A DNA stretch of 62,860 nt, the filler included, from Asterionella formosa (Eukaryota): the NCBI GenBank assembly GCA_002256025.1. It is 24 parts of 24 records of this genome, joined end to end, with 100 filler letters (N's around TTAATTAATTAA, not from the genome) between each part and the next. Parts side by side here need not be neighbours in the genome. Positions count along the whole stretch, not along the records: positions 30,276 to 31,812 come from NKIB01002022.1; 23 more parts are not named here. One strand, given 5' to 3'. Position 1 is the stretch's first letter. Every line of letters starts with the position of its first letter. This document shows positions 5,926-59,697 of the stretch, one piece after another. A program made the position numbers and the translations under genes. The notes below the pieces were generated by a model. It did no database searches. It had not been told where the DNA came from and was given only the letters and a program-made list of their open reading frames with translations.

Positions 5926-5927
5926 AC

Positions 5928-6370
5928 CTGTTTGTGATTGGAAATGCCTTTCATACTACTTGGACCAGAGACGGCGGGATGTTTGATTCTCTTTTGGGAC
6001 CAGAAAAAAGCACATTTGATTGATAATCTGTTTTACAGTGCCTGCAATTCACAAACTATAACCTCAAACTTACATGTTCACAGCAAAACTTCTTGGTCTT
6101 TAAAATAAGACTCACAAGCTTTGTGACAATTGATGGTTCAATTTTAGCTAAGCGGGAACGACGTTTTGATAAGGCTGCTGAAATTGAAGATTCTTGATAA
6201 TTTTGTATGGACGAGTTTTGAACCGAATTACGACCTTTGTAGTGATTGAGTTCATTGACCAATTGATAATATCCTTTGGCAAGTGAGAATGTTTTTAACC
6301 CTCAGTTTGTCATGTACATGTTGGTCCGTGTGATTAGAAAATTTATGATATGGTACCATGTTGTCCATTG
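5928..6370 (-). pseudogene. Fragment of repeated orphan gene ORF-X (full copy at 58067-59536)
   Basis: Near-identical to 58787-59225 (VNELNHYKGRNSVQNSSI..SSISAALS.RRSRLAKIEP); fused directly to the Plavaka-like fragment. Confidence 0.85.
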
Positions 6371-19049: not shown

Positions 19050-19760
19050 GATCTACTAACCCATTGTCAAATGGTATACCATCTGTCATAAAAGATCTCA
19101 GTAAAACTGATAGTGTACATGACAATTCTTCTTCAGTTTTTGATACCAGAAACGTTCCTCCTATTTGATATTACACTTTTATAATTCCCAAATGCAGCCT
19201 GGTGGTCTGGTCCAAGTAGTTCATAAGGCATTTCAAGCACAAAGAAGTTTGGTTCTCCCTATGTTGCCGAAATGTGCTTTATGCAGCGAGATCAGAGTTA
19301 GACAAGAAGCAGAAGTGGCACTCAACTTCCAAACTTCAAATGGAATGGATTTGATTATCACTCCATTGAATGTACCAAGCAACAAGGCACATTTAGAATG
19401 TATCAAATCCAAATTTGGTGGCATGTGCATTAACAAAGAAATGAGAGAACATCAAAATAAACTGAATAACCATCTAAGGCAATATTAGGTATATTACAAT
19501 GAGAAGCTTACAACAGTTGCCAGTGATTTTCTATCAAAATTTTTCGACTCAAATATACTAACAAATTTTCCAATAAATTCCTTGGTCTTAAAGTGTATTA
19601 TAACAAGACTATAGATTCTGTCGCTTTTCTTTGTTTGGCATACAAATTTGATGGATTGGCGCAGTGATCAAGGGACAACAAATATTCCCAAGAGGAACAT
19701 CAAATTCACTGAATGCGGTTATCACTGGAGTATAGATGATGACATTGATTTAGATTTAAA
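19050..19760 (+). pseudogene. Old diverged copy of ORF-X
   Basis: LVQVVHKAF...HLECIKSKFGGMCINKEMREHQNKLNN aligns with RLDYIKSTFGGMCIKKLRECQNVLNN at 58481-58816. Confidence 0.75.
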
Positions 19761-28537: not shown

Positions 28538-28689
28538 NNNNNNNNNNNNNNNNNNNNNNNNNNNNNNNNNNNNNNNNNNNNTTAATTAATTAANNNNNNN
28601 NNNNNNNNNNNNNNNNNNNNNNNNNNNNNNNNNNNNNGCCAGTTAAATTCATAAAAGCAATATTATGATAACTACCGGGTAGGTATGCC

Positions 28690-29040
28690 AGAACATATGG
28701 TGTTCTGTTGCTCGCTTATTACTCCGACTATTGGTTTTTTGTTTTACGATCATACAATCCTGGAACTATGATGATTTACTGTCCCACGGTAGTAGCAACA
28801 ATCCTGAATATATGGTGTTCTATTGGTTTTTAGTTTTATGATCATACGATCCGAAAAATATGATGATTTACTGTCCCGCTGCAATAGCAGTAGTCATAGA
28901 CATTTCGTGTTCTATTGGTTTTTAGTTTTACGATCATACGATCCTAAAACTATGATGATTTACTGTCCCACTGCAGTAGCAACAGTCCTGAACATATGGT
29001 GTTCTGTTGTTAGTTTACCGGTACTACTCCGACTACCCCC
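28690..29040. repeat. ~88-bp minisatellite array (about 3.5 units); same unit at 31648-31812
   Basis: Unit ATGGTGTTCTATTGGTTTTTAGTTTTACGATCATAC(A/G)ATCCTAAAACTATGATGATTTACTGTCCC..G.AGTAGCA.CA.TC. Confidence 0.9.
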
Positions 29041-30175: not shown

Positions 30176-30275
30176 NNNNNNNNNNNNNNNNNNNNNNNNN
30201 NNNNNNNNNNNNNNNNNNNTTAATTAATTAANNNNNNNNNNNNNNNNNNNNNNNNNNNNNNNNNNNNNNNNNNNN

Positions 30276-31044
30276 CCACCAGTGATTAGGGTACGAAACG
30301 ACCTGGGGAAGGCAAAAACTCCAAGTACCGCTAGTATCCCTCCCACAGCCTCATCAATTAGCGATCTTTCGGGCACTTCACCAGCAACTGAAAGAAGCAG
30401 CATTCCCTTAAGAAATCCAATTCGTGTTGATGGTTCTTTCCCACGGCCACCCAATGTGGCCTCGCTACCAACAAGGGAAGGAAATGTGACACCATCAGAA
30501 AATGAACTTAATGGAATGTCAGGAAGTTCTATTAAAAGCTTATCGAATCGCTCACAAAGTTCGACTAAAACACCAACTACTTTGAACCAGGTGCAAGTTA
30601 ACTGGAAATCATCGTTGGACAAGGATTTTATGAATTGTAAGCGCCAAGGGATGGCTATTCTGGTTATGGAAGCCATGACAAAACGTAAGGAACGTCATTA
30701 CCTGACAGTTCCCAAAGAACACCAAGAGATGTTAAAGGCAAACAACAACTATAAAGCATTCTACCAGATGACTATGGAGGATCTCCATGACAGTGACATT
30801 CCTGAGTATAGGCGACTCGATAAAAAAAGATTCAAGAAATATTTCATTGAGTGCTATGCTGAGACATCGGGCAATTTCTCTGCTTAATATAAGGGAACGA
30901 GCTTGCCATACTGAGGAGCTGAACAGAAGATATGCTGCTGCAAGAGAAGAAAATGTTCATCTACCTTATGAACATTACCTTACTACGGGTAGTAGTGTTC
31001 GGAGAAATATGATGCAGTTTGAAGGAGAAATGGAAGAGATCTAA
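30276..31044 (+). CDS. 3' part of unknown Ser/Pro-rich protein with one frameshift near 30880
   Basis: Open from contig start to 30887, continued by the overlapping frame ending 31044; no family recognised. Confidence 0.45.
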
Positions 31045-31257
31045 CCGTAACACATTTACCTAGCTGTTAGTAAATGATAACTAATTTCGTATCTATGAAA
31101 CAATGCATTTGCATAGGCTGTTATTTCTATATATATCCAACGTCTGCGCGTCCTGCCAATATCTACTCATTACCTCAATCGTTTCGACTGGTGGCATCGA
31201 GTAAAACATTTGCGAGAACAAATGGATCGATGGGATATTGATCACAAACAGGAAGAA

Positions 31258-31595
31258 ACATTCATGACAACCATGTCAGATCCGTTCCATTGCAAATCTT
31301 CCTTCAATAGGTCAAACTCGTCATCCTTGAGCTTGCCTTCCAGTGGCATAGTAGGACTGAAGCGCGTCCAGAAAGATACGCTCCTTTTCGGCTACTGTGA
31401 GACGAATGAGTTCCCCACTTTCCGGATCGACGACACAGTATTCCTCGTCAGGAATGCATTCTTCTTCCTGCAAGTTAGTCTCAAAGAATCGTCTTGACTT
31501 GGCGTCGTAAGCGATTTCTCTCGTTCCGCTCGTAATGGTGATCTTTTCGTCGCTTCCTTCTTCGGCCATTAAAAGTGGACCAGCAACACGACCAG
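31258..31595 (-). pseudogene. PGRL1: Truncated, frameshifted PGR5-like 1 fragment
   Basis: EECIPDEEYCVVD..LIRLTVAEKERIFLDALQSYYATGRQ, then after a frameshift LKDDEFDLLKEDLQWNGSDMVVMN; resembles the PGRL1 FL.ALQ.FY..G....EFD.LKE.L.W.GS motif. Confidence 0.8.
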
Positions 31596-31912
31596 CTGTT
31601 GTCGTTGTCTTCCTTAAAGTTCGATGATCTTAAATTCATTTACCGGTACTGTCCCGCTGTAGTAGCAGCAGTCATAGACATATGTATATGGTGTTCTATT
31701 TATACAATCCTAAAACTATGATGACTTACTATGGTGTTCTATTGCTTGCTTATTACTCCGACTACCGGTACCGCTTTTCAGTTTCACGATCATACAATCC
31801 TAAAACTATGATNNNNNNNNNNNNNNNNNNNNNNNNNNNNNNNNNNNNNNNNNNNNTTAATTAATTAANNNNNNNNNNNNNNNNNNNNNNNNNNNNNNNN
31901 NNNNNNNNNNNN

Positions 31913-58066: not shown

Positions 58067-59536
58067 TTTCATGGGTATCTGGATTGAAACCCAAATATTT
58101 TTGTTGTAATCGGAATTTTCCTTTCAGCACCAAGAAGCAAAATGCTTCTGTACTGGCATTGATCAGCGAACCAACAAAACGTGTTTGCAATTCACACTGT
58201 GCCCGAAGACTGAGTTGAAATTTGGTCACACCAGATTTGTCTCCTGTTAAAAATGGTTCTCCACGGCTTGTCCTGCCTATAAAATACACCGGAGCAAGAA
58301 CATCACGCCAGACTTGGTATCCATGGCTTCCCCTGTCAATGTCCTTTGACTGCGCAAAACGATAAAGCGTCAACGCCCACCTAATAAAGTCATCAATATC
58401 CATAGTCTGGAAGTTATATTCCGTTAAACCAGCTGGTGTGTCATGAATTATGGCAGCAAACATATTTGATAAGAATATAATCACCAAATCAAAACATCAT
58501 GCTCGGTGTTTTGATCTCCCTGCAAATTACCTAAGATTCCTTTAAATTGATTATTCAATACATTCTGACATTCTCTTAACTTTTTAATGCACATGCCACC
58601 AAATGTTGATTTGATGTAATCTAAACGTGCCTTGTTGGTACGTTCAATGGTCTGATTCATTGGAAGTAGTGCATCAGAACCATTCCATATGAAATCGGCA
58701 AGCTCTGGGTCACTCTCCACTTCTTTGCCTGACTCCGGTTTCACTGTGTATAGCCGAGTTAGGCAAGCAACATTCGGCAAACCAATCCTGTTTGTGATTG
58801 GAAATGCCTTTTTCATACTACTTGGACCAGATAGGGCGGGATGTTTGATTCTCTTTTGGGAACAGAAAAAAGCACATTTGATTGATATTCTGTTTTACTA
58901 TACTACCTGCAATTCACAAACTATAACATCAAACTTACATGTTCTTGGTCTTGAATATAAAACTCACAACCTTTGTGACAATTGATGGATTGGTTCAATT
59001 TTAGCTAAGCGAGAACGACGTTCTGATAAGGCTGCTGAAATTGAAGAGTCTTGATAACCTCGTATGGACGAGTTTTGAACCGAATTACGACCTTTGTAGT
59101 GATTGAGTTCATTGACCAATTGATAATATCCTTTGGCAAGTACAAAATGTTTTTCCCTCAGGTTGTCATGTACTTGTTGGTCTGTGCGATTAGAAAATTT
59201 ATGATATGGTACCATGTCATCCATCTGCATCCGGGAGTTATTAATGTCATCATCGACAGGAGCCATTTTTCTTGTATCAACAACTGAAGTAGAAACGTCA
59301 TCATTGCTGTCAGTATCAATTACGGGATCCTTTGTACTAGTAGCTGATGGTGTCCCCATCGACGATGGGGTATTACCTCCAACATCTCCCAATCGCCGAT
59401 TGGGTTGCTTTGGATAATCGCCTATTCGCTTTTTCTTTGTAAACTCATTTTGGAACTTGCTTCTTTGTTCAATACCGGCAGTATTTGCCACATGTCGCTT
59501 GTTTCCATGAACCTCTTTATGGTTTCTTGAAGACAT
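58067..59536 (-). pseudogene. Repeated orphan gene ORF-X (about 470 codons visible), frameshifted, probable intron 58967-58907
   Basis: Consecutive ORFs 58964-59536, 58481-58816 and 58011-58487; a GTGAGT...TGCAG intron is also seen in the 6040-6115 copy; three copies in the window. Confidence 0.7.
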
Positions 59537-59697
59537 TGTACTACTTGATAACTGTTGTCGTTGTCTTCCTTAAAGTTCGATGATCTTAAAATCATTTNNN
59601 NNNNNNNNNNNNNNNNNNNNNNNNNNNNNNNNNNNNNNNNNTTAATTAATTAANNNNNNNNNNNNNNNNNNNNNNNNNNNNNNNNNNNNNNNNNNNN

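Follow-up and report, generated by a model that had tools for sequence, protein, structure and literature searches.

A PGRL1 gene fragment joined to repeat-region and unrelated flanking sequence in the diatom Asterionella formosa

The 62,860-nucleotide (nt) window analysed here, that is, the whole stretch of DNA taken from the freshwater diatom Asterionella formosa (assembly GCA_002256025.1), contains a fragment of the gene for PGRL1, a protein that acts in cyclic electron flow. The fragment lacks both ends of the coding sequence: on its 5' side it switches abruptly into a 46-nt leader that elsewhere in the window precedes a multicopy open reading frame (ORF), here called ORF-X, and on its 3' side, after the residues MVVMN, it switches into DNA unrelated to PGRL1. 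Both junctions are real, and further rearranged pieces derived from PGRL1 exist alongside this one in the same lineage of freshwater diatom. Homology to PGRL1, a polymorphic frameshift, native continuations of the gene elsewhere and further breakpoints in other copies were all observed, whereas we infer the mechanism of joining and the loss of function. With about even confidence, we propose that the contig carrying the fragment holds a young partial duplicate of PGRL1, generated by DNA-level duplication and illegitimate joins; carriage inside a transposon is less likely than such a DNA-level duplication.

From 25262 to 62860, the window consists of 23 contigs of 1531-1538 nt each, arranged in size order with 100-nt spacers (N44-TTAATTAATTAA-N44) between them, and any apparent feature spanning a spacer is artificial. 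The features that carry the finding are the following.

30276-31812: contig A, 1537 nt, containing the entire finding, between the spacers 30176-30275 and 31813-31912.
31260-31596, minus strand: PGRL1-derived fragment, codons A38-N150 of the 330-residue precursor P0131, intronless.
31332-31333, minus strand: frameshift site, where codon M126 is down to 1 base (AT gone); polymorphic.
31596-31641, minus strand: leader, 46 nt, 97.8% identical to 59552-59597, ending in ...ACAACAG.
58067-59597: contig B, which carries ORF-X and has the leader copy at its very end.
59552-59597, minus strand: leader copy in contig B, with the ORF-X ATG 16 nt later, at 59535.

Contig A was compared with the metagenome contigs L072 (from the Joint Genome Institute, 2942 nt), L078, L080, L043 and L079, with the related loci L047-L077, and with four sequencing runs aligned to it, namely X2 (DNA), X15 and X18 (RNA) and the further run X1. 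Words of contig A were found in at least 20 runs, 18 of these with half or more of the words, from 13 studies that are mostly of freshwater metagenomes. In X1, 43,137 contigs fell on 30276-31812; they include numerous minor variants, and their depths add up to 0.7-3.5 million. Contig-derived depths, these very large X1 figures included, are of no use for copy number.

Identity and junctions of the fragment

A tblastn search of the window with P0131 aligned residues 38-125 to 31596-31333 (96.6% identity) and residues 127-150 to 31331-31260 (100%), with a joint E of 9e-56. In the same search, residues 1-37 had no match in the window, and residues 151-330, including CPSCEVEN and CPSCKTEF, had none anywhere in it; no second PGRL1 piece was found in the window besides 31260-31596. 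When the first open stretch of the fragment was compared with a protein database, 196 proteins at E<=0.001 were recovered among 409 candidates, the best match being P0001 (E 2.2e-46, 98% identity), and the named proteins among the matches are all diatom proteins. The Atlas labels of the nearest clusters read 'putative PGR5-like protein' (0.98) and 'PGR5-like protein 1A, chloroplastic' (0.93). In Pfam, the fragment has no family, full-length PGRL1 relatives have none above the cut-off, and no PGRL1 model passes. The fragment retains the conserved PGRL1 motifs ITSG..EIAYD, FFETN, EKERIFLDALQSYY and DEFDLLKEDL. Plastid targeting in diatoms uses a presequence made of a signal peptide and a transit peptide, and the C-terminal half of PGRL1 holds membrane helices and paired Cys motifs. 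In contig A, the leader stands in place of residues 1-37 of P0131 (MAMLG...GSDAF|AP...FNK), so that the signal peptide is gone along with most of the transit peptide. The homology over A38-N150 and the 97.8% identity of the leader thus bear out an earlier note on this DNA, which had described a host PGRL1 fragment without its targeting peptide, abruptly joined to sequence upstream of ORF-X.

That note had also reported a frameshift and an end at MVVMN, and both are found, as a 2-nt deficit at M126 and a switch at 31260. A full ATG is present at M126 in 5/5 aligned relatives (L072, L078, L080, L043 and L079), and the L072 fragment, with its frame intact, is 100% identical in protein sequence to residues 38-150 of P0131. 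The depth share of the form with AT is 58,734/1,305,032 in X1, 360/1947 in X18, 41.7/183 in X2 and 3838/8781 in X15, and these shares are lower bounds owing to clipped alignments. In X2, record 26 is a clean contig of 60 nt that shows the AT-less form without any difference, and because X2 is an independent run, the deficit is a real variant and not an assembly error. A further 2-nt deficit private to contig A lies near 30885-30887, in the convergent gene Y described below, where AC is present in X18, X2 and X15. The conserved SYYATGRQ motif varies as well: a variant with Y120D and T122A (31344 and 31350) accounts for 1329/1689 of the RNA depth in X18 and is also present in X2 and X1.

At the 5' end, the leader gives way to PGRL1 at 31596, a base (G) compatible with both, and at the 3' end PGRL1 gives way to unrelated DNA at the junction 31260|31259. 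L072 corresponds to 31638-30276 at 98.5% over 1369 nt, with both junctions, and the 3' junction is run through for more than 900 nt by L072, L078 and L080. The 5' junction lies within a 309-nt X2 DNA contig (record 29) that covers 31416-31724 with 0 differences. Positions 30276-31290 are covered by a 1086-nt X2 contig (record 25) and a 1062-nt X15 RNA contig (record 9), which reach 30 nt past 31260, the rule for bridging being 31 letters. The earlier note had named a chimeric contig as an outcome that would undo its reading, and this outcome is averted by L072 for both junctions, by L078 and L080 for the 3' one and by the 309-nt X2 contig for the 5' one. The two junctions presumably lie on one molecule.

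The native gene continues past both breakpoints elsewhere. Loose ends at 31261 in X18, X2 and X15, reverse-complemented, read N-RKEATYLAAM, the native PGRL1 continuation, and since this continuation is identical in DNA and RNA, 31260 is a breakpoint inside an exon rather than a splice site. An intron after MVVMN, beginning with the GT at 31259, was rejected as a candidate because the X2 DNA and the RNA runs continue directly into RKEATY. At 31596, an X15 RNA loose end reads RAKPFAVFNK, which is residues 28-37 of P0131. These native continuations indicate that the fragment is not the sole PGRL1 sequence and, along with the AT-less form in the X2 contig, remove the other concern of the earlier note, namely a sole PGRL1 locus whose frameshift is a sequencing error. 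Several observations in the aligned runs were not counted as evidence: X18 RNA has depth 0 at 31472-31575 (31264-31471 is deep and runs into the end of segment U, described below), X2 DNA covers 31472-31627 with one contig only, and neither a DNA loose end joining the native N-terminus at 31596 nor a loose end at 31356/31357 is listed.

Sequences on either side of the fragment

The leader follows a repeat array on its upstream side, and the DNA past the 3' junction belongs to the flank of gene Y. The features concerned, with those of the related contigs, are the following.

31647-31812, minus strand: 92-nt repeat, about 1.8 units, ending at the end of contig A; its BLAST pieces have 76-92% identity.
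31641-31646, minus strand: 6-nt micro-insertion ccggta, inside the repeat unit, between unit and leader; polymorphic in reads.
28638-29035, minus strand: contig C, with the repeat array directly abutting a stretch of 52 nt (28689-28638).
31145-31259, minus strand: the segment X'up, 115 nt of gene Y 3' flank that begin at the 3' junction.
30276-31044, plus strand: 3' part of gene Y, convergent with the PGRL1 fragment, its last ORF stopping at 31044.
Behind gene Y in L072, L078 and L080: segment U, the antisense 3' flank and last 14 codons of gene W.
L078 3363-4829: gene W, a 488-residue ORF on the minus strand of the locus.
31249-31265 and 31454-31470: arms of a 17-nt imperfect inverted repeat (14/17, 82%), the first arm straddling 31260|31259.

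The 31-nt core of the leader has 2 matches in the window against 0.00 expected in a pattern search, and among 80 loci the leader is present in one, L072. The start of the leader resembles the 92-nt repeat unit (common ...GGGACAGTAAAT), and the remainder aligns weakly with it. The order of array and leader given in the earlier note is confirmed, with the amendment that the leader start is itself repeat-like; likewise, the copy that the note placed at 59550 does run to an ORF-X ATG, and it is more exactly the last 46 nt of contig B. The same repeat of about 92 nt occurs in contig C at 28688-29035, where Tandem Repeats Finder called a period of 92 with 3.1 copies at 28728-29009; in the window, this program called the contig C array only, without the 1.8 units of contig A, and in L078 it found no tandem repeats. 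The micro-insertion at 31641-31646 is missing at an X1 loose end at 31643 (34 reads). It belongs to a group of 6-nt micro-insertions of the GGTACC type, with L079 among the other sequences concerned: GGTACC runs take the place of the array in X15 and X18 contigs, with loose ends at 31641 and 31649, and P0124 and P0129, known as proteins only, have in-frame 2-residue insertions (TG and RY) inside otherwise intact PGRL1 ORFs.

The continuation of the leader into ORF-X at 31596 is found in 90 X1 reads and in a 3673-nt X18 RNA contig. The ORF-X of contig B is spread over three reading frames, which makes introns in ORF-X probable. The 25-kb piece of the window contains partial, diverged copies, at 5927-6368 (88.7%) and 19206-19504 (69.8%). 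A Pfam search with the ORF-X pieces gave no family and no recognisable transposase domain, and the C-terminal piece has 1 homologue, unnamed, in the protein collection.

On the opposite side, the 3' flank of gene Y extends from 31259 to 31045. The earlier note had described this stretch as exon-like, followed by GTAATG, and possibly a second captured host fragment; it is instead the 3' flank of the convergent gene Y, and GTAATG is read through, unspliced, in the protein P0133. Gene Y is split in contig A by the 2-nt deficit near 30885-30887 and is continuous in L078, where it runs on for about 2 kb (493-2498) on the minus strand of the locus, in three ORF pieces, and is multi-exon. A Pfam search with genes Y and W gave no family. 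HMMER found 352 unnamed representative relatives of the gene Y piece at E<=0.001, 13 of them at E<=1e-10 and most of them 100-440 amino acids long; the piece had no match among longer proteins and none in the Atlas. When 14 of these relatives were searched against Pfam, 12 had no family at E<=0.01, and the matches of P0140 and P0215 look unrelated. The gene Y side and contig B have nothing in common at the DNA or protein level, and tblastx of L078 and contig B against the window revealed no protein-level link between the fragment flanks and ORF-X. Downstream of gene Y, the first 52 nt of segment U equal contig C 28689-28638 and lie, in L072, L078 and L080, about 2.3 kb downstream of the PGRL1 fragment. 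Before these 52 nt stands the array in contig C, and in L072, L078 and L080 the upstream region of gene Y (L078 2440-2720); the joint of array and U in contig C reflects either a deletion at this same locus or one more illegitimate joint.

Other PGRL1-derived pieces, proteins and the missing intron

Other copies of PGRL1 break at other points. L078, L043 and L079 contain PGRL1 only from 31453 (inside codon 85; 85/86), behind an end of segment U with an in-frame stop. This U-end was tried as a PGRL1 intron and rejected, for it corresponds, in antisense, to the end of gene W (last 14 codons plus 3' flank), with a native continuation into gene W in L078. L043 extends past codon 150 to at least residue 262 with two stop codons, L079 has a PGRL1 break near codon 145, and L080 misses 37 nt (31474-31438), which changes its frame.

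At the protein level, the 90% cluster of P0001 has 18 members, with the true precursor P0131 and P0133 among the members listed. Residues 1-17 of P0133 correspond to 31197-31147, in the gene Y flank, and residues 18-117 to 31626-31333, after which the protein runs on to the C-terminus. Other ORFs of the cluster start at the internal Met residues M126, M146, M160 and M170, on contigs of 783-3823 nt.

An intron at Q117|S118 (31356|31357) is present in 16/28 related loci examined, and it seems that P0002, which is 93% identical and comes from a contig of 7.3 kb, runs into this intron as well. It is missing in every DNA copy of this species seen, including those that run past codon 150, and this comparison of sequences suggests a lineage-specific loss. 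Upstream of that point, residues ~5-117 lie in one exon in related loci (e.g. L052 and L053), and P0002 reads FAVFNKAGHVAG unbroken.

Origin of the fragment and comparison with known systems

In the explanation that we favour at about even confidence, PGRL1 would have been duplicated at the DNA level in a repeat-rich, break-prone neighbourhood. The 5' end of the duplicate would have been joined, with an overlap of at most 1 nt, to the final 46 nt of the repeat region usually found ahead of the ATG of multicopy ORF-X, and its 3' end would have been joined, within an exon, to the 3' flank of the unrelated convergent gene Y. Such joins may have arisen by end joining, or by template switching on 1-2 nt or on short imperfect microhomology. 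The microhomology is 1 nt at the junction of leader and PGRL1 and 2 nt (CA) at the joint of flank and leader deduced from P0133, and the U junction sits in a patch of imperfect similarity. The arm 31454-31470 of the 17-nt inverted repeat ends exactly at the breakpoint 31454|31453 of the U-joined copies, a coincidence noticed post hoc; the repeat is compatible with templated or fold-back repair.

Several observations weigh against this explanation. The link between the 5' and 3' junctions spans 194 nt (31453-31260) that are common to other PGRL1 copies, and it comes from two assemblies, the window and L072, with the X2 and X15 contigs not bridging it. The identity of L072 to P0131 over residues 38-150 implies minimal decay. 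A dead fragment does not predict leader-joined forms that look expressed and extend to the C-terminus, yet P0133 has the layout flank, leader, PGRL1(38-330); P0001, P0122 and P0134 have a GTG start just behind the leader position; and record 15 of the X15 RNA run, at a depth of 1044, joins 30 nt of the leader to a variant that is 6 nt longer (RVAVAG, shared with P0133). The native N-terminal join has just two sources, one RNA run and a protein of unclear source type, which leaves room for an intron, and the lack of the Q117|S118 intron in all DNA copies could point to an RNA intermediate.

The most probable of the rivals, though unlikely, is that the array and its 46-nt tail ending in CAG are a young repeat-derived intron, or an insertion that is spliced out, between codons 37 and 38 of a PGRL1 copy, so that the abrupt switch would be an intron-exon boundary and contig A would be that gene or its truncated duplicate. 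The leader indeed ends in ...ACAACAG (31596), and after an exon 1 ending in ...AAG G, splicing would restore AAG GCT GGT exactly; residues 28-37 are joined to codon 38 in P0131 and in the X15 RNA loose end, where ...AAG G meets CTGGT; and each DNA contig seen to reach 31596 (the window, L072 and X2 record 29) has the leader. Yet such an intron would have to be a very recent gain, given the uninterrupted exon of the related loci and of P0002. Two inserted residues (RVAVAG) mark the leader-joined forms, RNA and protein alike, and are missing from the N-terminus-joined P0131, P0133 has gene Y flank and no exon upstream of its leader, the leader is retained in the 3673-nt X18 RNA contig of ORF-X, and no donor site or upstream exon was seen, contig A and L072 ending in or before the array. 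That this intron sits inside a working PGRL1 gene, in the same lineage that lost the 117|118 intron, is distinctly unlikely; in that case, absent or faulty splicing would account for the leader-joined RNAs, and contig A would be a shortened duplicate of that gene. Between these two in probability, and hence also improbable, stands a chimeric retrocopy, in which a reverse transcriptase on PGRL1 mRNA jumped at codon 38 onto the 5' portion of an ORF-X transcript and gave leader-PGRL1(38-330), with the truncation at codon 150 arising later by rearrangement. All PGRL1-derived DNA here lacks the intron that 16/28 related loci, and apparently P0002, possess, the 5' partner is a transcribed region just before an ATG (the X18 RNA contig has leader and ORF-X), and the junction overlap is at most 1 nt. 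P0133, P0001, P0122 and P0134 fit a unit of leader and PGRL1(38-330), the cluster members starting at internal Met residues could be further 5'-truncated copies, and bipartite retrogenes are described for LINE (long interspersed nuclear element) reverse transcription in PMC2104539. However, copies that run past codon 150 (the X2 loose end and L043) are also intronless, so that the working gene may itself have lost the intron, which would void the intron argument. No poly(A) tail, target-site duplication or nearby reverse transcriptase was seen, and ORF-X probably has introns, as it lies in three frames. The leader start, moreover, is not established as an RNA 5' end: another 15 nt, upstream of the P0133 leader start, are common to contigs A and B, and the X18 RNA extends further.

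Very unlikely, in our estimate, is the Pack-type capture proposed in the earlier note, by which a non-autonomous derivative of an ORF-X element took up the PGRL1 piece, and perhaps a second host piece, and can move it. The fragment does stand in the place of ORF-X exactly behind the shared 46 nt, the 90 X1 reads from leader to ORF-X show the usual context, pieces of ORF-X recur in the window (5927-6368 and 19206-19504), and contig A recurs in 18 runs and 13 studies. This mechanism is nevertheless not supported. A search for inverted termini gave none in contig A or L072 (only internal pairs of 14-20 nt) and none in the window, the region upstream of the array being unseen; the 46 nt are shared on one side only, the 3' partner is unrelated and has nothing in common with contig B, and other breakpoints and partners exist. 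For ORF-X and its neighbouring ORFs, Pfam gave no family and hence no transposase domain, and ORF-X has a single homologue. In contig C, the array is joined to other sequence at a different internal point, a poor fit to a fixed element end, and the recurrence across runs seems to reflect one locus with the same flanks (L072, L078 and L080) rather than many insertion sites. The same low probability applies to an artefact of linkage, in which leader-38-85 and 86-150-flank come from different loci and were joined by assemblers through the shared 194 nt. The upstream partners (leader, U-end and native N-terminus) and the downstream partners (flank, RKEATY and the L079 type) occur in 6/9 combinations among contigs and proteins, the contigs of the aligned runs break inside the shared piece, contig A is only 1.5 kb long, and the 194 nt exceed the word length of assemblers, so that some links may have been chosen in assembly. 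On the other hand, the window and L072 are independent assemblies that hold the same link with different variants, and L043 is a diverged copy with its own stop codons, so that several true loci are not unlikely.

As a young partial duplicate joined illegitimately, the fragment would be an ordinary kind of genome debris, in which a partial copy of a nuclear photosynthesis gene is fused to neighbouring repeats. It carries a warning for annotation, as public metatranscriptome protein clusters include leader-joined and 5'-truncated ORFs as 'PGRL1', and it offers a compact set of mapped breakpoints for the study of break repair in this diatom genome. It may also serve as a test case for intron gain from a repeat, or for antisense or chimeric RNA with a regulatory effect against PGRL1. 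If the intron in a working gene were true, the locus would have been caught in the act of gaining an intron from a dispersed repeat in a core photosynthesis gene.

Among known systems, functional diatom PGRL1 (P0131, P0003, P0004, P0035 and P0072) shares with the fragment the conserved motifs and, in the case of P0131, identities of 96.6% and 100%; unlike it, the fragment has no residues 1-37 or 151-330, a broken frame in this assembly and no trace of the relatives' intron. Capture of gene fragments by Pack-MULE, Pack-CACTA (Tgm-Express) and Helitron elements is known from plants (PMC5861414, PMC1947982). As in such captures, a startless host gene piece lies beside a repeated element, is transcribed and could form chimeric RNAs. 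Unlike them, it has no terminal inverted repeats or other element ends, shares 46 nt on one side only, is accompanied by no recognisable transposase and borders on its other side the flank of a different gene. A literature search gave no paper whose title deals with gene capture by transposable elements in diatoms, titles alone being no proof of absence. Chimeric retrogenes are exemplified by the mammalian U6-L1 chimeras. Template jumps of LINEs generate bipartite and tripartite chimeric retrogenes, according to PMC2104539, and like those, the fragment would have a 5' part of one transcript fused to a 3' part of another, without introns and with minimal overlap. It differs from them in that no poly(A) tail, target-site duplication or source of reverse transcriptase was seen and in that its 3' end is replaced at codon 150. 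Finally, illegitimate recombination, filler DNA at break repair and microhomology-mediated template switching are known to make duplicated gene fragments and chimeric pseudogenes. The missing ancestral intron is not explained by this non-processed class alone and sets the fragment apart from it. In common with non-processed chimeric pseudogenes, the fragment and its relatives display overlaps of 0-2 nt, exon-internal breakpoints, small indels, a short inverted match at breakpoints, and several pieces of one gene joined to different partners from the same neighbourhood.

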